Shown piece after piece: positions 2,559 to 60,978 of a DNA stretch of 64,000 nucleotides. Numbering within the stretch: the stretch's first letter is position 1; every line of letters starts with the position of its first letter. Origin of the DNA: an uncultured Gemmatimonadaceae bacterium (GTDB taxonomy: Bacteria > Gemmatimonadota > Gemmatimonadetes > Longimicrobiales > RSA9); assembly GCA_964416095.1 (NCBI GenBank), contig CAYQCY010000004.1, positions 8,561 through 72,560 of the forward strand. Reading direction: 5' to 3'. The notes beneath the pieces were generated by a model that saw nothing but the letters and a program-made list of their open reading frames with translations, made no database searches and was not told where the DNA came from. The position numbers and the translations under genes were made by a program.

Positions 2559-3692
2559 CTAATCCCGTTCCAGCTCCCGCGCGATCACCACGCGCTGGAT
2601 CTCGTTGGTCCCCTCGTAAATCTCCGTGGCCTTGGCGTCCCGCATCAGCTTCTCCACCGGGTAGTCCCGCATGTACCCGTAGCCACCGAAGATCTGGACG
2701 GCTTCCGTGGCGGCCGCCATGGCCGCCTCGCTGGCGAACAGCTTCGCCATGGCGGAAGCCCGCGTGCTCATCTCCGACGCCGCGTCCCGCAGCAGCGCAC
2801 GCGCCGCGGCGACCCGCGTCGCCATGTCCGCGAGCTTGAATTGCACGGCCTCGAACTCGCGGATCGGGCGACCGAACTGCTCCCGGTCGCCCGCGTACCG
2901 CAGGGCATGGTCCAGTGCCGCCTGGCCGATGCCCACGGCCTGCGCCGCGATCCCCAACCGGCCCACGTCCAGCCCTTCCATGGCGAGACGGAACCCGGCG
3001 CCCTCGTCGCCCAGCAGGGCGTCCGACCCGACCCGCACGCCGGCCAGGCGCACGGTCACGACCTCGATGGGGCGGAGCCCCATCGTCTCCTCCCTGCGGA
3101 CGACATCGTACCCGTCCGCGTCGGTGGGCACCAGGAACGCGCTGAGCCCCGGCGCACCCTCCGCCTCCGGGTCCGTCCGGGCGATGACCAGGGCCAGGCC
3201 GGCGACACGGCCGTTGGTCACCCACTTCTTCTCGCCGGTCAGCACCCAGCCATCCCCGTCCCGCTCCGCCCGCGTGGCCACGGCCCCCGCGTCCGAGCCG
3301 GCGTCCGCTTCGGACAGGGCGAAGCACGCCACGGTGTCGCCCGCCGCCAGCGGTTCCAGCCACCGCTCCTTCTGGGCATCGGTCCCGTACCGCCCCAGGA
3401 GCGAGCACGCGAACGCGCTGTGGATGGACAGCGTCAGGGTCACCGCCGGCTCGCCCCACGCCAGCTCCTCCAGCGCCGCCACGTAGACGGGCAGGTCGAA
3501 GCCCATCCCGCCGTGCGCCTCCGGCACCAGCATGCCGAAGAAGCCCAGCTCCGCCAGTTGCTCCAGCACCCCGTCGCCCAGGGCCCGCTCCCGGTCCCAC
3601 GCCTCCACGTGGGGCCGCAGCTCGGCCTCGGCGAACTGGCGGGCGAGCTCGCGAATGCTCCGTAACTCGACGGCTTCTGTCATATCCGCCAC
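2559..3692 (-). CDS. acyl-CoA dehydrogenase
   Basis: Full 377-aa ORF. Typical ACAD features are present ([19 protein letters not shown]-terminal [10 protein letters not shown]). Confidence 0.9.
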
Positions 3693-3760: not shown

Positions 3761-4612
3761 TCACTCCGAATAGTCGTAGAACCCGCGCCCGCTCTTCCGG
3801 CCCAGCCAGCCCGCGTCCACGTGCTTGCGCAGCAGCGGACAGGGCCGGTACCGGTCGTCGCCCAGGTCCCGGTGCAGCACCTCCAGGATGAAGAGGCAGG
3901 TGTCCAGCCCGATGAGGTCGGCCAGGGCCAGCGGGCCCATGGGGTGGTTCATGCCCAGCTTCATGACCTGGTCGATGGCCTCCGCCTCGGCGACGCCCTC
4001 CATGAGGGCGTACACGGCCTCGTTGATCATGGGCATGAGGACCCGGTTCGACACGAAGCCCGGGAAGTCGTTCACCTCCACGGGCGTCTTCTCCACGCGC
4101 TTCACCAGCTCGACGGTCCGGGTCGTGGTGTCGTCGTCGGTCTGGAGCCCGCGGATCACCTCCACGAGCTGCATGACGGGCACCGGGTTCATGAAGTGCA
4201 TCCCGATGACCCGCTCAGGCCGGTCCGTGCCGCCGGCGAGCTTCGTGATGGAGATGGAAGAGGTGTTGGACGCCAGGATGGCGTCCTCCGGCGCCACCGC
4301 CTGCATCTCGGCGAAGACCTTGGTCTTGAGCTCCAGGTTCTCGGGCACCGCCTCCACGACGAGGGCCGCTCCGGCCGCGTCGCCCATGGACGACGTCGTC
4401 GTGATGCGCCCGAGGGTGGCTTCCTTCACCTCCTCGGTGATGACCTCCTTCTTGACCTGCCGGGCAAGGTTCTTGTCGATGGTCTTCAGGGCACGCTCGA
4501 GCTGGTCCGCATCCACGTCGACGAGCGTGACCTCGTGATCATGCTGGGCGAAGACGTGGGCGATCCCGTTGCCCATGGTCCCCGCACCCACGACCGCAAT
4601 TCGATCTGCCAT
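3761..4612 (-). CDS. hbd: 3-hydroxybutyryl-CoA dehydrogenase
   Basis: 283-aa product [20 protein letters not shown]... (NAD Rossmann) with NTSSISIT and [13 protein letters not shown] motifs. The start was trimmed to ATG 4612. Confidence 0.85.
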
Positions 4613-37804: not shown

Positions 37805-38887
<1,083 letters not shown>

Positions 38888-38932: not shown

Positions 38933-39337
38933 TCAGCTCTCCTCTTCCTCGTCGGCGCTGCCGCCGTCCGGCTCCGCTTCCGCCTCTTCGGCCGCCTCCC
39001 CGGCGGACGCTTCCGCCTCCGCCGCGGCTGCCTGCTCCGCGTCCGTCGACTCCTCGCCGGCGTCCGCGGCCTCGGCCTTCGCCTTCCGGGCCTCCGCCTT
39101 CTTCTCTTCCCGGTCCGCCGCTTCCTTCCGCTTCGCCTGCGTCTTCTTCCACTTGCGCTCGAACCGCTCCACGCGGCCCGCCGTGTCCACGATCCGCTGC
39201 TGACCCGTGAAGAACGGGTGGCAGACCGAGCAGATCTCCACGTGGATGTCGTCCACCGTGCTCCGCGTCTGGAACGTGTTGCCGCACGCGCAGTGCACGG
39301 TCGCGAGCTTGTACTCCGGGTGTATCCCCTGCCTCAT
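38933..39337 (-). CDS. rpmE: 50S ribosomal protein L31 (Zn-ribbon type) with long C-terminal extension
   Basis: The N-terminal ~70 aa is [10 protein letters not shown]...HCACGN...[12 protein letters not shown]...[10 protein letters not shown]. About 65 extra residues follow, rich in Lys/Glu/Ala and then strongly acidic. Confidence 0.9.
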
Positions 39338-39379: not shown

Positions 39380-39408
39380 AACATAATGACGGCACCTGCC
39401 GTGATCAA
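39380..39408 (-). promoter_or_regulatory. candidate sigma70-type promoter of rpmE
   Basis: On the minus strand: TTGATC (39408..39403), 17 nt, TATGTT (39385..39380), about 40 nt upstream of the rpmE ATG. Confidence 0.4.
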
Positions 39409-39411
39409 GAC

Positions 39412-39819
39412 GGGTCACGGCGTGGACCTTCCCCATTGTTGCGCGTCCCCGCTGATGCAGCCGGGCAACATCGGGCCGCCGTCGAGCTCCTGCTCGCAGC
39501 GCGGCGAGGATCCGGTCGATCGCCAGGCCCCGTGGCAGGGCCACCTTCGCCGTCGGGAAAACGCGGAAAAGCGGAAGGAGGCGGCTGCGCGGAAGCCGCG
39601 GTCGCGAAGGGTTGCGCGCCACGCCGCCGTCCGACAAGAGGTTTTGAAGGTCCGGCTGCGACGCGTACGCAAGGGCAGGCCGAGGGCGTCCCGCGTCTTT
39701 GCGCGACGATTCCGCGCGTCCGCGTTGAATTCCCACTTTCCGATCGACGCTATCTCTCGCACCATAACGGGTTACGGAGAAACCCGGCCATTTTTTGGGG
39801 AAGGTCCTGGGGTCACGGC
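39412..39819 (+). mobile_element. MITE-like non-coding repeat element, copy A (with flanking direct repeats)
   Basis: The ~388-nt body (39422..39809) is ~93% identical (hand alignment) to 54728..55116. The 12-bp terminal inverted repeats are perfect: GGACCTTCCCCA (39424..39435) and TGGGGAAGGTCC (39796..39807). A perfect 10-bp direct repeat GGGTCACGGC flanks it at 39412..39421 and 39810..39819. Substitutions between copies show no 3-nt periodicity. Confidence 0.65.
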
Positions 39820-41366
39820 CTCACCCGCGCCCCAACGAGCATGGCCAGGGCGGCGAGCGTCGCGGCCGTGGCGAGCCAGTCGCCCCAGCGGGTGTACAGG
39901 GTCCGCTCGTCGGTGGTGTAGACGGTGGCCGAGCGAACCGCGGCCCCGAACAGCTCGGTCTCCTCGTAGGTGCGCCCCCGGGGGTCGACGTACATGGAGA
40001 TCCCGGTGTTGGCCGGGCGAGCCACGCCCATGCGGTTCTCGATGGCCCGGAGCACGAGGTGGGACGGGTGCTGCCAGAGCGCGCTGGTCCGGGCGTACCA
40101 ATCCTCGCGGCCGTACCAGGCGTCGTTGGTCATGTTGACGAGGAAGTCGGCGCCCCGGTTGCGGAACCGGCGGCTCTGCTGCTGGAAGATGGACTCGTAG
40201 CAGATGAGCACGCCGAACTCGGCGCCCTCGCGGCCCATGGGCTCGAGGGAGCGGCCGCGTCCGAGCCCACCGAACCAGCGCAGGTCGCCGGTGACGGACT
40301 CGAGCCAGTCGGGGTCCACGAAGGGCACGCGCTCCACGAAGGGCACGAGAAAGCGCTTGCTGTATACGTTGGTGGTGATGGAGTCGGGCGTGACGTAGAA
40401 GGCCGAGTTGAAGTACGTGGCGTCGCCGTCGCGCAGCTCCCGGTCGTAGGCGCCCACCAGGATCGGCGCTCCGGCCCGCAGGCTGAGCCCTCTCACGGCC
40501 AGCTCGACCCTCCCCTCGCTTCCCGGCTGGATGACGGTCGGCAACGCCACCTCGGGCCAGGCCACCAGGTCCACGCTCCCCCGCCGGATCTGGCCGGTGA
40601 GGTTGGCCAGGGCGCTGAACGAGGTGTCCAGGGCGATCCTGCTGTCCATCTTCAGGTCTTCCGGGATGTTGGGCTGGACGACGGCCACCCGCGCGGTGGG
40701 CCGCATCTCCAGCGTCGCGTCCCGCCAGACGCCGTACACGATCGGTACGGCCACGAGGGCCGCCAGCACGCCCACCGTTCCCCGAATCCGCCGTCCGGCG
40801 CGCCGGTGCACGATGGCCAGGGCGCCGACGCCGTTCACGGCGGCCAGCCACACCGTGAGCCCCCGGGCGCCCACCAGGTCCGCGGCCCCGGCCAGGCTCG
40901 GGAAGCCGGCCAGGGATGTGCCCAGCCCGAGCCAGGGGAAGGACAGGTCCGCCAGGTTGCCCTGGACCCATTCCAGGGCCGTCCAGAACGCGGCAGCGAT
41001 GACGGGCAGCGGCACGCGCGTCCTCTGTAGCGTGTAGTGGACCGCCCAGCCGAAGGCCCCGCTGAACCCGGTGAGCACCAGGATGGTGCCCAGGTACGCC
41101 GGGACGGCCAGGGCGGAGTAGTAGATCAGCGCGATGACCAGCCAGTACAGGGTCAGCCCGAAGTAGATCAGGCCGGCGAGCATGGCGCCGCGCGTCGCTT
41201 CCCAGCGTCCCCGGGCGTCCGGTGCGCGCTCGGCGATGAAGACGAGGAGCGGGACGAGCCCCAGGAAGGAGGGCAGAAGCAGCCGGAACGGCGGGAAGGC
41301 GAGGGCCATCACGATCCCCGACAGCGTGGGCAGCAGGCGCTGTCCCCGTGGCGGCACGAGGCTCAC
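39813..41366 (-). CDS. lnt: apolipoprotein N-acyltransferase
   Basis: 517 aa: N-terminal multi-TM region plus a CN-hydrolase domain (VVQPNIP, VAWPEVALP, ICYESIF). Confidence 0.9.
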   Translation of the reverse strand: MSLVPPRGQRLLPTLSGIVMALAFPPFRLLLPSFLGLVPLLVFIAERAPDARGRWEATRGAMLAGLIYFGLTLYWLVIALIYYSALAVPAYLGTILVLTGFSGAFGWAVHYTLQRTRVPLPVIAAAFWTALEWVQGNLADLSFPWLGLGTSLAGFPSLAGAADLVGARGLTVWLAAVNGVGALAIVHRRAGRRIRGTVGVLAALVAVPIVYGVWRDATLEMRPTARVAVVQPNIPEDLKMDSRIALDTSFSALANLTGQIRRGSVDLVAWPEVALPTVIQPGSEGRVELAVRGLSLRAGAPILVGAYDRELRDGDATYFNSAFYVTPDSITTNVYSKRFLVPFVERVPFVDPDWLESVTGDLRWFGGLGRGRSLEPMGREGAEFGVLICYESIFQQQSRRFRNRGADFLVNMTNDAWYGREDWYARTSALWQHPSHLVLRAIENRMGVARPANTGISMYVDPRGRTYEETELFGAAVRSATVYTTDERTLYTRWGDWLATAATLAALAMLVGARVRP

Positions 41367-52145: not shown

Positions 52146-52616
52146 TCACATGCTCGCGTCGCGTCCGCGCAGCCGGCTCACCAGCCCGCGCAACGCGAGA
52201 AGATAACTGTCCGCCCCGAATCCCGTCACCACCCCCACCGCCATGTCCGCCAGCAGCGACGTCGAGCGGAAGGACTCCCGGGCGTGCACGTTCGAGACGT
52301 GCACCTCCACGAACGGCAGGCCCACGCCCACCAGCGCATCGCGCAACGACACGCTCGTGTGGGTGTAGCCTCCCGCGTTGACCACGAAGCCCGACACCGA
52401 GCCCGCCGCCTCCTGGACGTGGTCCACGAGCTCGCCTTCCACGTTCGACTGGAAGAACGACAGCCCGACACCCAGCTCCTCGCCCAGGGCCGCCAGCCGT
52501 CTCTCCACGTCCTCCAGCGTCACCGAGCCGTACACCTCCGGCTCGCGCTGGCCCAGCAGGTTCAGGTTCGGGCCGTGGACGACGCCGACCCTCAGCGTTT
52601 CAGGCTCTCCAGCCAC
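52146..52616 (-). CDS. aroQ: type II 3-dehydroquinate dehydratase
   Basis: 156 aa with VVHGPNLNLLGQREPEVYG, FQSNVEGELVD and GGYTHTSV. Confidence 0.9.
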   Translation of the reverse strand: MAGEPETLRVGVVHGPNLNLLGQREPEVYGSVTLEDVERRLAALGEELGVGLSFFQSNVEGELVDHVQEAAGSVSGFVVNAGGYTHTSVSLRDALVGVGLPFVEVHVSNVHARESFRSTSLLADMAVGVVTGFGADSYLLALRGLVSRLRGRDASM

Positions 52617-54637
52617 GCCCGAAACATGTCCAGGTCATCGTCGTCGGCTGCATCCGTGGACTCGGCCGCCGGCCCTTCCTCTTCGCCCGCCGACGGGGCC
52701 GCCTCCGGCGGAGCCGCCTCCGACGGGGCCGCCTCCGACCGGCTACCGCCGGGTCGCCAACCGGCGAGCGACCGGAGGTACGCGGCAATGGGCTCACCCG
52801 CCTCGGCGTCCGCCTCGTCCGGCTCCGCCCAAGCGTAGGGGGTCTGCTCACCGCCGCTGGCACCGCCGGCCCCGGTCCACACCGATTCCACGTCCTCCGC
52901 TTCCGGCGCCTCCGGCGGTCCAGGCTCCTCCGAGACCGGGAGCTCGTCCAGGAACGGGAGTGCCTCGTCGGCCTCCTCTTCCGGCACCTCTGTCTCCGGC
53001 TGCGGCACGTCCGCTTCCTCGGCTGCTTCGGCCGTCGCTTCCTCGGCCACCACTTCCTCCGCCCATGGCTCCGCCGGCTCCGGGCCCGTAACCTCGGCCT
53101 CGGCCCACGGCTCCGTCGCCTCGGGCTCGTCCCGCTCGACCTCTTCTTCCGGCTCCACGGCGGACGGCTCCGGCGCGCCTGCCGCCCCTGCCGCCGGCTC
53201 GTCCGAGACGCCCTCGGCTTCCCGCAGCGCCTCCACCGCTTCCAGGCGCTCCCGAAGCCGCTCGTCGGCGGGACGCTGCTTCAGCAGCTCCCTGTACACG
53301 GTCACCGCCCGATCGTACAGGCCCTGGCGCTCGAACACCTGGGCCATGGTCTCCGTGTACACACGGCCGGCGTGGTCCTCCGCCGGAGCCGTCTCCTCCG
53401 GCTCCGGCACGCCCATGCTCGTCGTGGCATACGGCTCCAGCGGCATCGCGTCCGGCTCTGCCTCACCGACCGCCTCTTCCGGGCTCGTCTCTTCCGGCCC
53501 CTCCTCCTCCGGCGCCATCCCCTCCGGCGCTACTTCTTCTTCGCGCGCCATCCCCTCCGGGACGACGTCCTCCTCCGGGGCGACGTCCTCCTCCGGGGCG
53601 ACGTCCTCCCCCGGGGCGACGTCCTCCCCCGGGGCGACATCCTCCCCCGGGGCGACATCCTCCTCCGGGGCGCGCTCCGCCTCCTCGTCGGCCTCCATGG
53701 TCCCACCGCCGGGACCTTCGGCCGTCTCGAGACCGTCCATCCCTCCGACCTCCGGGAGCGGTTCCGCGTCCTCCGGGATACCCTCACCTTCCCGGTGGTC
53801 CTCCATGGTCACGTCGAGGTGCTCGATGGCCGCCTCGTCCACCGCGTCGGACCCCACAATGGTGTCTCCGGCCTCGAAGCCGGCCACGACCTCCGGTTCC
53901 ACCTCTTCCTCGGTGGCCTCTTCCGGCACCAGCCCCGGCTCTTCCTCGTGCTCGCCCGCCGGTTCCGGCGCCGGCTCCACCTCCGGCTCCAGCTCTTCCT
54001 CGATGGTCTCGGCGGGCACCGCGTCCTCTTCGCTCGCGCCGCGCTGGAAGTCTCCCTCACCGAGGGTGAACGCCTCGATCTTCGCCTCACCCTCCACCGC
54101 CGCGCCCTCCGGCGTCTCCTCTTCCGCCTCCGGCTCGGGCACCCACGGCTCCTCCGGCTCGGGCTCTCCGGCCGGCGGCTCCGGAATGCTGACCGGCTCC
54201 ACCCGAGCCTCCGCTTCCGCGACCGGCGCTCCCGTCTCCAGGGCGGTGATGATCTCGTCCAGCTCGTCGTCCTTCGGCTCCAGGTCGGCCAGCCGCCGAT
54301 AGTAGCCCAGGGCTTCGTCCGTGCGGCCGGCCTTCCTGGCCAGATCGGCGAGGCCCCGGAGCGCAACGAGATTGTGGGCGTCCAGCTCCAGAACGCGTTC
54401 GAACGACGATTGTGCTTCGTCGTCCCGCCCCAGGTCCTGCAGCACACGACCCAGGACCACGTGCGCGCTGGCGTAGTCCGCGTGCCTCGCGATCCCATCC
54501 TCCAACACGGCGTGCGCCTGCTCCGGCGCGCCGGACTTCCGGTACGCTTCCGCGAGATGGATGAAAACCCGGCCTTCCGGGTTCTCTTCGTAGAGCGCTT
54601 CCAGCTTCGCGATCTCGTCTTGATGAGCCTCGGCCAT
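52592..54637 (-). CDS. TPR-repeat protein with very long acidic Glu/Pro/Ala-rich region
   Basis: 681 aa: N-terminal TPRs (AHVVLGRVLQDLGRDDEAQSSFERVLELD...), about 450 aa of acidic low complexity including hexapeptide repeats, one internal TPR-like unit, and a C-terminal DLDMFRAWLESLKR. Confidence 0.75.
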   Translation of the reverse strand: MAEAHQDEIAKLEALYEENPEGRVFIHLAEAYRKSGAPEQAHAVLEDGIARHADYASAHVVLGRVLQDLGRDDEAQSSFERVLELDAHNLVALRGLADLARKAGRTDEALGYYRRLADLEPKDDELDEIITALETGAPVAEAEARVEPVSIPEPPAGEPEPEEPWVPEPEAEEETPEGAAVEGEAKIEAFTLGEGDFQRGASEEDAVPAETIEEELEPEVEPAPEPAGEHEEEPGLVPEEATEEEVEPEVVAGFEAGDTIVGSDAVDEAAIEHLDVTMEDHREGEGIPEDAEPLPEVGGMDGLETAEGPGGGTMEADEEAERAPEEDVAPGEDVAPGEDVAPGEDVAPEEDVAPEEDVVPEGMAREEEVAPEGMAPEEEGPEETSPEEAVGEAEPDAMPLEPYATTSMGVPEPEETAPAEDHAGRVYTETMAQVFERQGLYDRAVTVYRELLKQRPADERLRERLEAVEALREAEGVSDEPAAGAAGAPEPSAVEPEEEVERDEPEATEPWAEAEVTGPEPAEPWAEEVVAEEATAEAAEEADVPQPETEVPEEEADEALPFLDELPVSEEPGPPEAPEAEDVESVWTGAGGASGGEQTPYAWAEPDEADAEAGEPIAAYLRSLAGWRPGGSRSEAAPSEAAPPEAAPSAGEEEGPAAESTDAADDDDLDMFRAWLESLKR
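53564..53671. repeat. 6 x 18-bp tandem repeat inside the TPR gene
   Basis: The unit GAC(G/A)TCCTC(C/T)(C/T)CCGGGGC is repeated six times head to tail. It encodes the repeating hexapeptide (A)PGEDV / PEEDV on the minus strand. Confidence 0.85.
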
Positions 54638-54686: not shown

Positions 54687-54716
54687 AAGATAGGATACGT
54701 CGCGCGCGACTGTCAA
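54687..54716 (-). promoter_or_regulatory. candidate sigma70-type promoter of the acidic TPR gene
   Basis: On the minus strand: TTGACA (54716..54711), 18 nt, TATCTT (54692..54687), about 50 nt upstream of ATG 54637. Confidence 0.4.
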
Positions 54717-54719
54717 CGT

Positions 54720-55125
54720 GGGCCGGCGTGGATTTTCCCCATTTTTGCGGTTCCCCGCCGATGCAGCCGGGCAAAATCGGGCCGCCGTCGGGCTCCTGCT
54801 GGCAGCGCGGCGAGGATCCGGCCGATCGCCAGGCCCCGTGGCAGGGCTACCTTCGCGGTCGGGGCAACGCGGAAAAGCGGAAGGAGGCGGCTGCGCGGAA
54901 GCCGCCGTCGCGAAGGGTTGCGCGCCACGCCGCCGTCCGACAAGAGGTTTTGAAGGTCCGGCTGCGACGCGTACGCAAGGGCAGGCCGAGGGCGTCCCGC
55001 GTCTCCGTGCGACGATTCCGCGCGTCCGCGTTGAATTCCCACTTCCCGATCGACGCTGTCGCTTGCACCACATCGGGTTACGGAGAAATCCGGCCATTTT
55101 TTTGGGGAAAGTCCTGGGGCCGAGC
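54720..55125 (+). mobile_element. MITE-like non-coding repeat element, copy B (with flanking direct repeats)
   Basis: Same orientation and ~93% identity to copy A. Terminal inverted repeats are GGATTTTCCCCA (54730..54741) and TGGGGAAAGTCC (55103..55114). Flanking imperfect direct repeats are GGGCCGGC (54720..54727) and GGGCCGAGC (55117..55125). It lies in the divergent intergenic region between the TPR gene and the ppiD-like gene. Confidence 0.65.
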
Positions 55126-55257
55126 CCCGGCGTGTCCCGGCAGCGCGCCTTGAGAGCCCCGCCCGCCACGGTTATCTTTTTCCGTTACGACGGCTGGGCG
55201 GCGTCGTTTCCTTCTCTGGCAACGACCTGATGCGCAGCGGGCAGGAGCGGTAGCCCT

Positions 55258-57078
55258 ATGATGCGGCAGATGCGTGAGAACACGAAGTGGATCATGCTGA
55301 TCACGGCACTGGCCTTCGTGGCTCTCATGGTGTTCGAGTGGGGCATGGACCTGAGCGGCCGGAGCGCCGCCCAGTTCACCGGTGGCGAGATCGGCCGGGT
55401 CAACGGCGACCCCATCATGTACGACGAGTATATCGAGGTGTACCGGCAACTGCACGAGCAGGCGCAGGCGCAGCAGAGTCAGCCGGTCAGCTCCGTCCAG
55501 AACGAGCAACTGGAGGATCAGGCCTTCCAGCAGGTCGTGCAGGACCGCCTGATCCGGCAGGAGCTCCAGCGGCGCGGCATCGCGGTGTCGGACGAGGAGA
55601 TCATGCAGGCGGCACGGTACGCACCTCCGCCCGAGTTCATGTCCGCGGAGGTCTTCCAGACGGATGGGCAGTTCGATCTGGACAAGTACCACCAGTACCT
55701 CGCCACCAACGACCCCCAGCTCCTCAGCCAGCTCGAGGCGTACTACCGGTCGGTGCTGCCCCGGAACAAGCTCTTCCAGCAGGTGGCGGCCGGGGCTTTC
55801 GTCACGGATGACGAGCTCTGGCGCATCTACCGGGAGCGCAGCGAGACGGCCATGGTGACGTACCTGTCCCTGGAGCCGTCCACCCTCGTCGCCGACGACC
55901 AGGTCACCGTCACGGACGACGAGGCCAGGACCTACTTCCGGGCGCACCGGAGCGATTTCCAGCGGTCCGCCAGCGCGCGGGTCCGGTTCGTGGCCATCAA
56001 CCGTCAGCCGACGCCGTCCGACACGGCGGCGTCCCGCGCCAGGGCCGAGGAGGTCCGGCAGCGGATCCTCGACGGTGAGCCCTTCGCCGAAGTGGCCGAG
56101 CAGGAGTCGGCCGATCCGGGCTCGGCTGCCCGGGGCGGCAACCTCGGCATCGTCCAGCGCGGCCAGATGGTCGCGCCCTTCGACGAGGCCGTCTGGTCGC
56201 TGCCGGTGGGCCGCCTCAGCGAGCCGGTCCTGACCCGCTTCGGCTTCCACATCATCGAGGTGCAGAGCCGCGAGGGTGACCAGGCGGAGGTCCGCCACAT
56301 CCTCATCCCGGTAGAACTCACCTACGAGAGCGAGGACGCCCTCTTCTTGGTGGTGGACTCCCTGGAGGTCCTCATCGAGGAGCTGCCGCTGGCGGCGGCG
56401 GCCAACGAGCTGGACCTGGAGGTGCGGGAGGCATCGCTGAGCCCCCAGCTCCCGTTCGTCACGGGCCTCGGCAATGCGCAGCAGGGAATGGATTGGGCAT
56501 TCGAGACGGCGATTCCCGGCGACATCAGCCCCGTCTTCGAGGGGCCGACGCACTACTACGTCATGGAACTCGTGGAGAGCACCCCGGCGCGCCCGCTCAC
56601 CTTCGAAGAGGCCCGGCCCACGGTGCGCGAGGTGATCCGGATGGAGAAGAAGAGGGAGCGGGCCCGTGACGTCGGTCGCGACCTGGTGGACCGCATCCGG
56701 AGCGGCGCCGGCCTGGGCTCGGTGGCGGCACTCCAGGACCTCACGGTCCGGGAGGCCGGCCCCTTCACCCGCATGGACTTCGTGCCGGGGCTCGGCTCGG
56801 CCAATGCCGCCATCGGCACCGCTTTCGGTCTTCCCGTCGGCGCCGTGAGCGGCCTGGTGGAAGCACAGAACGCCTTCTTCATCATCCGGGTGGAGGACCA
56901 CCAGCCCGCCGACCGTGAGGCGTTCGAAGCCGCCCTGCCCGGCCTGCGCCAGCAGCTCATCACGGCGCTCCAGCAGGAGCGCATCAACCGGTTCGTGGCG
57001 GCGCTACGGGAGAACGCGGAGATCGTCGATCGGCGGGACGAGGTGCTCCAGCCCACGACGACCCAGGCCGCGATCTGA
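55258..57078 (+). CDS. PpiD/SurA-family periplasmic chaperone with parvulin PPIase domain
   Basis: 606 aa: N-terminal TM anchor (WIMLITALAFVALMVF), SurA-N-like regions and a parvulin core (GGNLGIVQRGQMVAPFDEAV...GFHIIEV). AGGAG lies upstream of the ATG. Confidence 0.85.
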   Translation: MMRQMRENTKWIMLITALAFVALMVFEWGMDLSGRSAAQFTGGEIGRVNGDPIMYDEYIEVYRQLHEQAQAQQSQPVSSVQNEQLEDQAFQQVVQDRLIRQELQRRGIAVSDEEIMQAARYAPPPEFMSAEVFQTDGQFDLDKYHQYLATNDPQLLSQLEAYYRSVLPRNKLFQQVAAGAFVTDDELWRIYRERSETAMVTYLSLEPSTLVADDQVTVTDDEARTYFRAHRSDFQRSASARVRFVAINRQPTPSDTAASRARAEEVRQRILDGEPFAEVAEQESADPGSAARGGNLGIVQRGQMVAPFDEAVWSLPVGRLSEPVLTRFGFHIIEVQSREGDQAEVRHILIPVELTYESEDALFLVVDSLEVLIEELPLAAAANELDLEVREASLSPQLPFVTGLGNAQQGMDWAFETAIPGDISPVFEGPTHYYVMELVESTPARPLTFEEARPTVREVIRMEKKRERARDVGRDLVDRIRSGAGLGSVAALQDLTVREAGPFTRMDFVPGLGSANAAIGTAFGLPVGAVSGLVEAQNAFFIIRVEDHQPADREAFEAALPGLRQQLITALQQERINRFVAALRENAEIVDRRDEVLQPTTTQAAI

Positions 57079-57814: not shown

Positions 57815-58816
57815 TTACCTGCGCCGATCCACGACGTAGTCCACGGCCTGCCTCAACCCGGCCAACGCCTCGCCGTCCGGTGCGTCTTCCAGCGCCGCCC
57901 GCGCCCGTTCCCCGTACGCCTCGGCCCGGGACCGGGCGTAGTCGAGCCCGCCGTGGGACCGGACCAGCTCCATGACCCTGCCGATGCCGTCGTCCGTCGG
58001 CTCCGGTTCCGCGAAGAACGCTTTCACCTCCCGCCGGGCGCCGCCATCCATCTCCCGCAGCGCCGCGATGAGCGGCAGCGTCATCTTGTGCTCCCTCAGG
58101 TCCTGTCCCGCCGGCTTCCCCGTCACCGCCTCGGTCTGGGTGTAGTCCAGCACGTCGTCCACGATCTGGAACGCCATCCCGAGGTGGTGCCCGTAGCGCG
58201 CCGTGGGCGCCCGCAGATCCCCGTCCCCGAGCATGGCGCCCATCTCGCACGCCGCCGACATGAGCGACGCCGTCTTGCACGCGATGAGGCGGTCGTATTC
58301 CGCCTCGGTGTAGCCCAGGGCATCCGCCGAGACCAGTTGCCGCATCTCGCCGACGCTCATCTCGTTCGCCGCCCGGGACAGCACCGAGATCAGCTCCACA
58401 CGGCCGACCGCCGCCAGCTCGCTGACGGAGCGGCTGTACAGGTAGTCGCCCATGATCACGGCGGCCTGGTGGCTCCACAGGGCGTTCACCGTCGGCATGC
58501 CGCGCCGCAGTACCGAGTGGTCCACCGCGTCGTCGTGTACCAGCGTCGCCAGGTGCACCAGCTCCACCACCGCGCCCACCGTCTCGGCCTGGGGGTGACG
58601 CCGTCCCGAGAGCTCGTTGCACAGGAGCAGGAGCGTGGGCCGGAACAGCTTGCCCCGCGCCACCAGCAGGTGCTCGTTCACGTGCTCGATGGGCGGGAAG
58701 TCCGTCAGCACGATCCGCCGCAGCTCCTCGATGACCCGGTCCAGGCCCTTCCTCACCGGCCGCTGGATCTGGGCGAGCTTCCGCGGCGCCGCCCGGAGCA
58801 GCACGTCGTCCGTCAC
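57815..58816 (-). CDS. polyprenyl diphosphate synthase (long-chain trans-IPPS)
   Basis: 333 aa with the first and second Asp-rich motifs LVHDDAVD and FQIVDDVLD. Confidence 0.9.
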   Translation of the reverse strand: MTDDVLLRAAPRKLAQIQRPVRKGLDRVIEELRRIVLTDFPPIEHVNEHLLVARGKLFRPTLLLLCNELSGRRHPQAETVGAVVELVHLATLVHDDAVDHSVLRRGMPTVNALWSHQAAVIMGDYLYSRSVSELAAVGRVELISVLSRAANEMSVGEMRQLVSADALGYTEAEYDRLIACKTASLMSAACEMGAMLGDGDLRAPTARYGHHLGMAFQIVDDVLDYTQTEAVTGKPAGQDLREHKMTLPLIAALREMDGGARREVKAFFAEPEPTDDGIGRVMELVRSHGGLDYARSRAEAYGERARAALEDAPDGEALAGLRQAVDYVVDRRR

Positions 58817-60978
58817 AGGCGGGACAGGCGCTCGGGAACGTCCCGGAAGGAGGCGTCGATCTGCATGATCTTGTCGTAAGAGGCCCGCGCCTCGTCCCGA
58901 TCGCCCAGCTCCTCGTGGCAGAGGCCCAGATGATAGAAGACCCCCAGCAGCTCGGTCTCATCCTCCCGCGGCAGCTCCAGCGCACGATTGAGCACTTTCA
59001 CGGCCACGTTGTACTGGCCCTTCATGATGAAGCACTGGCCCAGCTCCTCGTACACCTTCAGACGCTCCTCCCCGCCCTTGAGCGCCGTCTGGAACTCGCT
59101 GATGGCCTCGTCGATCAGCCCCATCTCCTTGAAGGCCAGGCCCAGGTCGTAATGGCTGCCGGCGTCCTCCACGGCCACGTCCTCCGTGACCTTCGCCTTG
59201 AACCGGGAGAACAGGTCCGAGAACTGATCCGCCTCCAGCGCCGGCCCGCCGGCGGCCTGCATGGCCGCGTCCTCGTCCAGGAACGCCGCCAGGTCCACGT
59301 AGTCGTCTGCCGCCTCGGCCTCCTCGCCGGCTTCGGGCAGGTCCAGCGCCTCCCGGGCCTCCTCGTTGGACGGGTCCAGATCCAGCGCCCGCTGGTAGAC
59401 CGTCGCCGCCTTCGTCTCGACCCCCTGCCGGACCAGGCACCGAGCCAGGTCCAGGTAGTTCCGTGCCAGCACATCGCTGTCGTCCATGCGCGAGGCGAGC
59501 TCCACCCGACGCTGCAGGGCGGCCAGGTCGTCCGGATCCTGCCGGATCAGCTCGTCCACCACACCCAGCGCCTGCCGGTAGACATCGGGCTCCGCCCGGG
59601 CGACGAGCAGCAGCCGCAGCTCGGTCAACGCCTGCGTGCCGAGTCCCCGACCCACCAGCTCCCGAGCCCGGTCCAGCACGGACGCCGTGTCCACGCCCGC
59701 GTCCTCGGCTGAAGGGGCCTCCTCCCCGGTCTCGGCCTCCGCCACCGCGCCCGCCTCCTCGCCGGTGAAGGAGAGGTCCAGGGAGCCGACGTCGAAGGCT
59801 TCCGCCTCCACGGCACCCTCCTCCTCCGCCCCGAGCTCCCCCATGTCCTCGAGGTCCAGCGTACCGACGGGCTCCGCTTCTTCCTCCGCGCCCAGCATGG
59901 GAAGCGGCTCGGCTTCCTCCTCCTCCGCTTCCTCCAGCTCCTCGGCTTCCTCGACGTCCACCGCCGCCTCGGCCTCCTCCGGCTCTTCACCCAGCATCGG
60001 GAGCGGCTCCGCTTCCTCGGGCTCCTCCTCCACCTCGTCCGCCGCCTCCTCCCCGAAGGTCTCGAGCCCGCCCAGCGCCACGTCATCCGCCGGTTCCGCC
60101 TCGTGCTCCCGCTCGCCGAAGCCGACTTCCAGGCCGGAAACCTCCTCCTCCGCCGCCACGCCCGTGTCCAGCTCGCCGACGGTGCGCTCGATCTCGATCT
60201 CGTCCGGCGCCGGTTCCGGTTCCTCCTCCGTCACCGGCTCCGCTTCCGCCTCGGCCTCCGCCGGCAAACCCACGGCGCCGGCCGCCGATTCCACCGCGAG
60301 CTCCGCTTCGGGCTCCTCCTCTTCGGCCTCCGCCGCCGGCGCCGGCGCCACCTCGATGGCGGCCAGGTCGATGCTCGGATCCAGCTCGCGAAGCTTCTCG
60401 CCGACCGCTCCGGCGGCTTCGCCGTTGCCGCGCTGGAGCCACTCGCCGTACGCCTTCTCGAGCTGGCGCACGGCATCGTCCGTCTGCTCGGCCGACACCA
60501 ACTGCTCGGCGAGGATCTCGCGGACCTCGGGGTCGTTGGACAGGTCGGCGAATTCCTCCAGCGCGTTCAGCGCCCCCTCCACCTCGCCGGCCTTGACCTT
60601 CCGCTCGGCGTACTCCAGGTACCAGCGCCGGGCGTCCACCAGGAAGCCCTGCTCCGCCGAGTAGTCACCCAACTGGCGGTACAGGGACGGCTCTTCCGGA
60701 CGGTAGCGGAGCGCCTTGTTGCACAGGGCGATGGCGTTGTTGTAGAGTCCCGACGCGGCATACTTTTCGGCGGCCTCCGAGTAGTAGCCGACCGCTTCGT
60801 CGGACTGGCCCATCCGCAGGTAGAGATCACCGATGCGGTTGTAGAGGGGCAGGTCGTCCTCCGTATCCTGCTCCTCGCCCGCACGAAGGACTTTCTGGTA
60901 CGCCTCGACCGCAGCGTTCCAGTTCTCCTTCAGCTCGTACTGACGAGCTTCGTTCTTGAGCTTGGTGATCGACTTCAT
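58813..60978 (-). CDS. TPR-repeat protein with central acidic region
   Basis: 721 aa from MKSITKLKNEARQYEL...: N-terminal TPRs, ~230 aa of Glu/Ala-rich acidic low complexity with an internal duplication (EEAEPLPMLG x2), and C-terminal TPRs. The start was trimmed to ATG 60978. Confidence 0.75.
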   Translation of the reverse strand: MKSITKLKNEARQYELKENWNAAVEAYQKVLRAGEEQDTEDDLPLYNRIGDLYLRMGQSDEAVGYYSEAAEKYAASGLYNNAIALCNKALRYRPEEPSLYRQLGDYSAEQGFLVDARRWYLEYAERKVKAGEVEGALNALEEFADLSNDPEVREILAEQLVSAEQTDDAVRQLEKAYGEWLQRGNGEAAGAVGEKLRELDPSIDLAAIEVAPAPAAEAEEEEPEAELAVESAAGAVGLPAEAEAEAEPVTEEEPEPAPDEIEIERTVGELDTGVAAEEEVSGLEVGFGEREHEAEPADDVALGGLETFGEEAADEVEEEPEEAEPLPMLGEEPEEAEAAVDVEEAEELEEAEEEEAEPLPMLGAEEEAEPVGTLDLEDMGELGAEEEGAVEAEAFDVGSLDLSFTGEEAGAVAEAETGEEAPSAEDAGVDTASVLDRARELVGRGLGTQALTELRLLLVARAEPDVYRQALGVVDELIRQDPDDLAALQRRVELASRMDDSDVLARNYLDLARCLVRQGVETKAATVYQRALDLDPSNEEAREALDLPEAGEEAEAADDYVDLAAFLDEDAAMQAAGGPALEADQFSDLFSRFKAKVTEDVAVEDAGSHYDLGLAFKEMGLIDEAISEFQTALKGGEERLKVYEELGQCFIMKGQYNVAVKVLNRALELPREDETELLGVFYHLGLCHEELGDRDEARASYDKIMQIDASFRDVPERLSRL

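Follow-up and report, generated by a model that had tools for sequence, protein, structure and literature searches.

What occupies the space between lnt and rpmE in a 64-kb stretch of DNA from an uncultured bacterium of the Longimicrobiales, phylum Gemmatimonadota (64,000 nucleotides of contig CAYQCY010000004.1, ~70% G+C; this whole stretch is called the window below), and why does nearly the same ~390-nt sequence stand a second time 15.3 kb away? Two copies of the repeat are present in the window, both on the plus strand. Copy A (388 bp, 39422..39809; 93.2% identical to copy B) lies between the stop codon of lnt and the promoter of rpmE, and copy B (389 bp, 54728..55116) lies between the divergent promoters of a TPR/acidic protein gene and a ppiD-like gene. 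The two repeats are very probably copies of a non-autonomous DNA transposon, i.e., a miniature inverted-repeat transposable element (MITE), which would represent a previously undescribed family in this uncultured host.

A MITE-like element had been proposed in the initial annotation of this DNA, and the proposal was strengthened by empty sites in relatives, by the lack of a match to any known family and by transposon-like termini in an unrelated metagenome-assembled genome (MAG). The element is small and has no transposase gene, terminal inverted repeats (TIRs) are located at the ends of the repeat, a target-site duplication (TSD) flanks it (perfect, with differing sequences, in copy A and in a second element, L005, described below; decayed in copy B), and sites without the element exist. 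Elements of this class are ordinary, the phylum is poorly studied, and the practical value of the finding is in annotation: the MITE accounts for two oversized intergenic regions and probably for assembly breaks in the Longimicrobiales MAG.

The repeat, its termini and the flanking duplication

In a blastn comparison, 39418-39812 and 54724-55119 are 93.18% identical across an alignment of 396 columns, and nhmmer gives E=7e-101. The same-orientation recurrence with 26 substitutions and 1 indel (~93%), which had been reported from a hand alignment, was reproduced in identical figures by a column count between 39422-39809 and 54728-55116 (26 substitutions, comprising 16 transitions and 10 transversions, and one 1-nt indel). 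Homology between the copies ends sharply, only a few nt from the TIRs. Lowering the word size to 7 revealed neither a third copy nor a fragment of one elsewhere in the window.

Logan contigs of run SRR7048218 that cover the two loci end inside the element: contig L001 begins (position 1) at window ~39451, and contig L008 ends at window ~55031. The L008 break inside copy B arises because copies A and B share k-mers. The L001 break is located 30 nt inside the left end of copy A, where the copies have no long identical run, so shared k-mers do not explain it; this break may point to additional copies among the sampled DNA. Breaks inside both copies fit a repeat.

The consensus TIR of the copies is GGAC(C/T)TTCCCCA (12 bp), followed by a short A/T-rich stretch. 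In copy A, the left TIR core GGACCTTCCCCA (39424..39435, plus strand) and the right TIR core (39796..39807, minus strand; TGGGGAAGGTCC as read on the plus strand) are perfectly complementary at 12/12 positions. The perfect 12-bp TIRs described for copy A in the initial annotation therefore stand, whereas their placement at the claimed boundaries does not, since the core starts 2 nt further in. In copy B, the left TIR GGATTTTCCCCA (54730..54741, plus strand) and the right TIR TGGGGAAAGTCC (55103..55114, minus strand) match at 11/12 positions with one mismatch; the reverse complement of the latter, GGACTTTCCCCA, is also the sequence of both TIRs of the L005 element. Position 5 of the TIR covaries on both arms between the copies, being C:G in A and T:A in B. 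Across the window, 12-mers with <=2 mismatches to the TIR number 22 compared with 8.8 +/- 2.9 in shuffled sequences (18 after subtraction of the four true TIRs), to which codon usage may contribute.

The 10-bp direct repeat reported around copy A is perfect: GGGTCACGGC was read both at 39412-39421 and at 39810-39819. Its right-hand copy holds the lnt stop codon, as had been stated (TCA at 39813-39815, i.e., TGA on the minus strand, lnt being the minus-strand open reading frame 39813-41366). The corresponding flanks of copy B, GGGCCGGC on the left (54720..54727) and GGGCCGAGCC, i.e., GGGCCGAGC(C), on the right (55117..55126), represent a decayed TSD. With its perfect ends and duplication, copy A appears to be the younger of the two, or the better preserved.

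The rate at which such repeats occur by themselves was estimated over the whole window. Inverted pairs of 12 nt that match perfectly and are separated by 300-500 nt were found at 4 places (~6e-7 per position and spacing); for perfect direct pairs of 10 nt separated by 350-450 nt, the rate is ~1.6e-5 in the same unit. Set against these background rates, the coincidence of TIRs and a duplication with the exact borders of a 93% repeat that was defined independently of them is far beyond chance.

Orthologous loci without the element and the same termini elsewhere

The relatives available for comparison are distant (lnt 64-72% and PpiD ~58% identical) and comprise three for locus A (L002, L003 and L004) and two for locus B (L009 and L010). 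The gene order lnt-rpmE-prfA-prmC is retained in relatives without the element, and the lnt-rpmE spacer is 80 nt in L002, 58 nt in L003 and 263 nt in L004 versus 475 nt in the window. Removal of the element together with one copy of the TSD (398 nt) leaves 77 nt (475 - 398). The spacer reconstructed in this way aligns with those of the relatives across a promoter-like motif, CTTGAT(C/T)...ATTA(T/G)..TTT, read as TTGATC, 17 nt, TATGTT. At locus B, the divergent arrangement of the TPR and ppiD genes is retained in L009 and L010 with spacers of 233 and 214 nt versus 620 nt in the window; after removal, 222 nt remain (620 - 398), and the two flanks of copy B match an uninterrupted stretch of L009.

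The expectation that the sequence had been inserted, and not vertically inherited, was thus upheld: none of the five relatives carries it at these loci, the spacer lengths are restored and the junction is collinear. Being absent at every available orthologous locus, the element is an insertion relative to them. In same-species genomes, a strict empty site would be expected to carry GCCGTGACCC once, followed by GTCTTGATC.

Some smaller sequences were observed at the orthologous sites. In L004, the lnt-rpmE slot contains a different extra segment of ~200 nt (2837-3036), bounded by long imperfect inverted repeats, CCGGGTGCGGGTGCC... / ...GGCACCCGCACTCG (35 nt at 77%, 23 nt at 83%); it may be another small inverted-repeat element in the same safe slot. 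In L009, the string GGACCGCCCCCA (~3848-3860), matching the TIR at 10/12 positions, stands beside the conserved -35 box of the TPR gene at the site homologous to the copy B insertion. In L010, ACGGCGTGGACC (3419-3430), identical to the left junction of copy A, is found at the homologous site as well. The location of both strings is suspicious, and they were considered as footprints. This was rejected: matches of 11-13 nt are common across loci, so the TIR-like strings are probably due to chance.

The same termini were sought by a TIR-gap-TIR scan (TGGAYYTTCCCCA, 345-375 nt, TGGGGAARRTCC) over 185,579 species genomes, one per species, in which ~0.5 chance matches were expected. Two loci were returned, L005 and L006. 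L006 is a chance match within a DNA methyltransferase gene, and a flanking repeat is absent. L005 is a 392-bp element (JAUWIB010000089.1, 929-1320) in MAG CSMAG_2283, which is unrelated to the host of the window, belongs to another phylum-level lineage and has ~55% G+C compared with ~70% in the window. The element carries GGACTTTCCCCA at both ends and is bracketed by a perfect 10-bp TSD of its own (GGGTATTCGC at 919-928 and 1321-1330 on the plus strand; GCGAATACCC on the minus strand). Its position is intergenic, between an upstream open reading frame with its stop codon at 913-915 and an aminodeoxychorismate/anthranilate-synthase-like gene with its ATG at 1373.

The L005 element and the window element have the same TIR, the A/T-rich stretch inside the TIR, the size class and the 10-bp TSD in common, and the end of the former coincides exactly with the right end of copy B over 16 nt. 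In contrast, the interior of the L005 element has no similarity to that of the window element. Since the same TIR occurs with its own 10-bp duplication in an unrelated MAG, these termini define a real transposon family with a TSD of 9-10 bp. That only the ends and the duplication length are common is as expected for different MITE families moved by related transposases, and the L005 element is thus a sister MITE family, which has nothing but the ends recognized by the transposase in common with the window element. The termini GGACYTTCCCCA ... TGGGGAARGTCC together with the 9-10 bp duplication could be used to seek an unclassified insertion-sequence (IS) family across phyla. Near the L005 element, a NotI-like restriction endonuclease gene adjoins a D12-class adenine methyltransferase gene (L005 4825-6580). 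In viral contigs, the TIR-gap-TIR pattern gave 0 matches, and an 18-nt end pattern gave 5 chance matches, all without partner TIRs; blastn against plasmids and phages returned nothing meaningful.

These comparisons bear on a non-mobile origin of the repeat, by segmental duplication or as a gene-conversion tract, with the inverted and direct repeats being due to chance or to recombination junctions. Such an origin would agree with the presence of only two copies in the same orientation 15.3 kb apart and with the mutual resemblance of their flanks. It is highly improbable, however, as the homology stops abruptly near the TIRs, TIRs and TSD together far exceed the background rates, L005 provides an independent element with these ends, and both loci look like simple insertions when compared with the orthologous loci.

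Formation of the two loci by a MITE could proceed as follows. A DDE-type transposase encoded elsewhere would bind the TIR (12 bp) together with the A/T-rich stretch beside it, excise or copy the element and join it to a target whose two strands had been cut 9-10 bp apart. Repair of the gaps left by this stagger would duplicate the target, as may be seen in perfect form in copy A and in decayed form in copy B. For copy A, the duplication would have restored the stop codon of lnt, and the rpmE promoter would have escaped damage. Both insertions took place in a narrow harmless slot just upstream of a -35 box, copy B between back-to-back promoters. The transposase type, the present mobility and any effect on neighbouring genes are inferences, the mechanism being drawn from general transposon biology.

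Interior of the element and comparison with known families

The element had been described as non-coding, on account of the lack of codon periodicity and the 1-nt indel. Both observations were reproduced: the differences between copies A and B fall into the codon phases as 6/9/12, i.e., phase is absent, and the indel was confirmed. In addition, the concatenated six-frame translation has no match in any frame among 5.8 billion proteins, and no Pfam domain was found in the open frames. Rfam gives no match over the whole window at gathering thresholds; in a relaxed scan of the locus (E up to 10), only chance matches with E >= 5 were obtained. The earlier failure to assign the sequence to a known RNA or element is matched by Rfam, Pfam, proteins, plasmids and phages, all without a match. 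In the literature, a full-text search with the TIR sequence returned nothing relevant, and no described MITE came up for Gemmatimonadota.

The differences between the copies are unevenly distributed. A 98-nt core (39601..39698, by column count) is identical in copies A and B, and the 140-nt stretch around it (alignment columns 139-278) contains 2 differences compared with 25 elsewhere. If differences were placed uniformly, a difference-free gap of this length would have P ~0.007-0.01. Inside the identical core, and hence the same in copy B, an internal motif TTTTGAAGGTCC is located (39642..39653, plus strand), which has the 8-mer GAAGGTCC alone in common with the right terminus. The presence of one such 8-mer within 360 nt is, by estimate, unlikely at the level of ~1%, and the motif, in which the initial annotation had seen a likeness to subterminal transposase-binding repeats, could possibly be a candidate internal binding site or a former end. 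Further to the right, copy A contains a terminator-like hairpin, CGGGTTACGGAGAAACCCG, with a T6 run extending from it into the right TIR (39768..39796, plus strand). In copy B, the hairpin is kept with a G-C to G-U change and is followed by a T7 run (55073..55102, plus strand). The hairpin, the conserved core and the position next to a -35 hexamer are features that go beyond the initial annotation.

A duplicated functional non-coding locus upstream of the rpmE and TPR genes (a small RNA gene, a cis-regulatory leader or an insulator), the inverted ends of which would be an incidental closing helix, has to be considered in view of this interior. The 98-nt core identical in both copies and the plus-strand terminator-like hairpin with its T run, conserved with a G-C to G-U change, could be signs of function, and the copies share their orientation, the end of each lying 81-87 nt before the start codon of a gene on the minus strand. 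Such a locus is nevertheless improbable. It has no Rfam match, and single-sequence folding of both strands against shuffled sequences gives z-scores of -0.01 and -0.78, i.e., no structure signal, the folding energy being no better than that of shuffled sequences on either strand. With alifold on the two sequences, each strand shows only 2 compensatory pairs, of which one is the TIR itself. A relaxed scan of the interior gave no sigma-70-like promoter that is conserved between the copies. At both loci, the element is absent from all five relatives while the adjacent promoters are conserved, and a non-coding locus would leave unexplained both the perfect 10-bp flanking duplication and the L005 element, which has the same termini and duplication length with an unrelated interior.

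The copies could also be internally deleted remnants of a full-length IS now dead or lost from the lineage, i.e., fossils instead of a still-mobilisable MITE. The 7% divergence, the degraded TIRs and duplication of copy B, and the failure to find a parent IS in the window or in the database scans would be in line with this. On the other side, copy A keeps perfect TIRs and a perfect duplication, and no transposase remnant is present in any frame. The chance that the copies are fossils is regarded as slim; this explanation overlaps heavily with that of a MITE and differs from it only with respect to present-day mobility.

Several points weigh against the MITE explanation and were set against the evidence above. 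Two copies only are visible in the 64-kb window; neither further TIR copies (0-1 mismatch) nor an autonomous IS bounded by these termini turned up in it, and the genome scan covered the spacing of 345-375 nt only. A 20-mer of the conserved core gave 0 matches in the species genomes of GTDB and one in JGI metagenomes (L007), which was dismissed as a chance match inside a methyltransferase gene. The empty sites come from relatives that are only 58-72% identical in the flanking proteins and are not strict same-species sites. At the ends of copy A, the outermost 2 nt between duplication and core (GT on the left, TG on the right) are non-complementary. The flanks of copy B are imperfect, matching at 8/9 positions with one indel or at 6/8 ungapped, and the flanks of A and B are alike (GGGyC..CGGC), which is not predicted for a random target. 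Finally, the identical core and the kept hairpin hint at constraint or gene conversion, beyond a plain MITE model.

Bacterial MITEs include, e.g., Correia elements (Neisseria), RUP (Streptococcus pneumoniae), ERIC/IRU (enterobacteria) and Nezha (cyanobacteria). Like these, the window element is shorter than ~600 bp and non-coding, possesses TIRs and a TSD, is intergenic near promoters and is presumably mobilised in trans. Unlike them, it shows no demonstrable sequence similarity to Correia, RUP, ERIC/IRU or Nezha. Its TSD of 9-10 bp differs from the TA of Tc1/IS630-derived families, and its 388 bp are at the large end of the MITE size range. Tn3-derived inverted-repeat miniature elements (TIMEs) have a 5-bp duplication and inverted repeats of ~38 bp, and IS630/Tc1-derived MITEs have a TA duplication. 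Both origins were ruled out by the G+C-rich duplication of 9-10 bp and the 12-bp TIR, the exclusion following from the different duplication length.

Two families with duplications of similar length were compared with the element. The IS4 family characteristically generates a duplication of about one helical turn (~10 bp); members of its IS4Sa subgroup duplicate 8-10 bp and have ends of the form CA------T (De Palmenaer et al. 2008, PMC2266710). The window element resembles this subgroup in its TSD of 9-10 bp and in its right end, which read inward, CAGGACCTT, has CA and T at position 9. It differs in the left end, GTGGACCTT, which is without 5'-CA, and the same asymmetry is found in L005. The resemblance to IS4Sa is confined to the duplication length and 3 terminal positions, and no DDE/YREK transposase was found to compare. 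Elements of the ISAs1 family also duplicate 8-10 bp and have CAGGG ends. At its right end, the window element starts with CAGGAC followed by an A run. For comparison, the ends of the E. coli H-repeat (H-rpt, carrying yhhI; ISAs1 family) were read as CAGGGAAAGATCATCAAAAG and CAGGGCAAGATTACGAAAG; CAGGGAAAGAT... Only CAGG and the A run are common, at ~9/20 positions, the left end of the window element is without CAGG, and CAGGG-type ends were not seen, so derivation from ISAs1 was judged not convincing. An IS4-like or ISAs1-like parent transposase may be taken only as a lead, and the element is filed as a MITE of unknown parentage.

Position next to -35 hexamers and gene neighbourhoods

In all three insertions (3/3), the TSD ends 2-3 bp upstream of an outward-facing -35 hexamer, TTGATC for copy A, TTGACA for copy B and TTGACA for L005. 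The -35-like hexamers (window 39403-39408 and 54711-54716; L005 1333-1338) drive the adjacent gene, and the junction of the element is at ~-48. For copy A, the promoter-like site is that of rpmE (TTGATC, 17 nt, TATGTT; 39380..39408, minus strand); it is host sequence, its -35 begins 3 nt past the TSD, and its CTTGAT...ATTA motif is kept in L003 and L004. For copy B, a promoter scan gave the site of the TPR gene (TTGACA, 18 nt, TATCTT; 54687..54716, minus strand), also host sequence, the -35 of which begins 3 nt past the left flank of the copy and which is kept in L009 and L010. In L005, the element is located 2 nt upstream of TTGACA. The -35 hexamers of the window loci are thus conserved in relatives without the element. 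On the other side of copy B, the same scan gave a ppiD promoter-like site in host sequence (TTGAGA, 17 nt, TATCTT; 55150..55178, plus strand), with equivalents in L009 and L010.

Under uniform placement that leaves genes and promoters intact (17, ~46 and 26 positions), the joint probability of such positions is ~1e-3, a value which is post hoc and calls for discounting. The adjacency to -35 hexamers is explained most conservatively by survivorship, the spacers being very short. It is rather unlikely that the transposase of the TIR family GGACYTTCCCCA, with its 9-10 bp duplication, chooses targets relative to promoter architecture. Targeting of this kind could use the TTGAC motif in the target arm, or DNA shaped or occupied by RNA polymerase, and a target preference would explain the likeness of the flanks of A and B. 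If it were true, the family would be a promoter-proximal 'safe-haven' MITE/IS family, the hairpin of which would insulate the promoter from upstream transcription. Targeting in place of survivorship would provide a new example of promoter-directed safe-site transposition; the consistent position beside -35 boxes is the sole feature that could raise the element above routine.

The best matches of lnt (39813-41366, minus strand), the homologues of which carry the Pfam domains LNT_N and CN_hydrolase, are in Gemmatimonadota/Longimicrobiales MAGs. Apart from identical sequences, the closest homologue reaches just 72% identity, which places the host in an uncultured lineage that lacks near relatives among sequenced genomes. 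Beyond copy A, rpmE (38933-39337, minus strand) is followed by prfA (37805-38887, minus strand) and then by prmC. Copy B is flanked by the TPR/acidic protein gene (52592-54637, minus strand) on one side and the ppiD-like gene (55258-57078, plus strand) on the other.

The product of the TPR gene (681 aa) is very acidic and contains Glu/Pro/Ala-rich low-complexity regions. Within this gene, an 18-nt tandem array of ~9-10 units (window 53518-53714) encodes EDVAPG/EDVAPE-type repeats. A second protein of the TPR/acidic kind (721 aa) is encoded at 58813-60978. Ribosomal protein L31, encoded by rpmE, has a long acidic Ala/Glu-rich C-terminal tail and a length of 134 aa versus 102 aa in L003 and 123 aa in L004.

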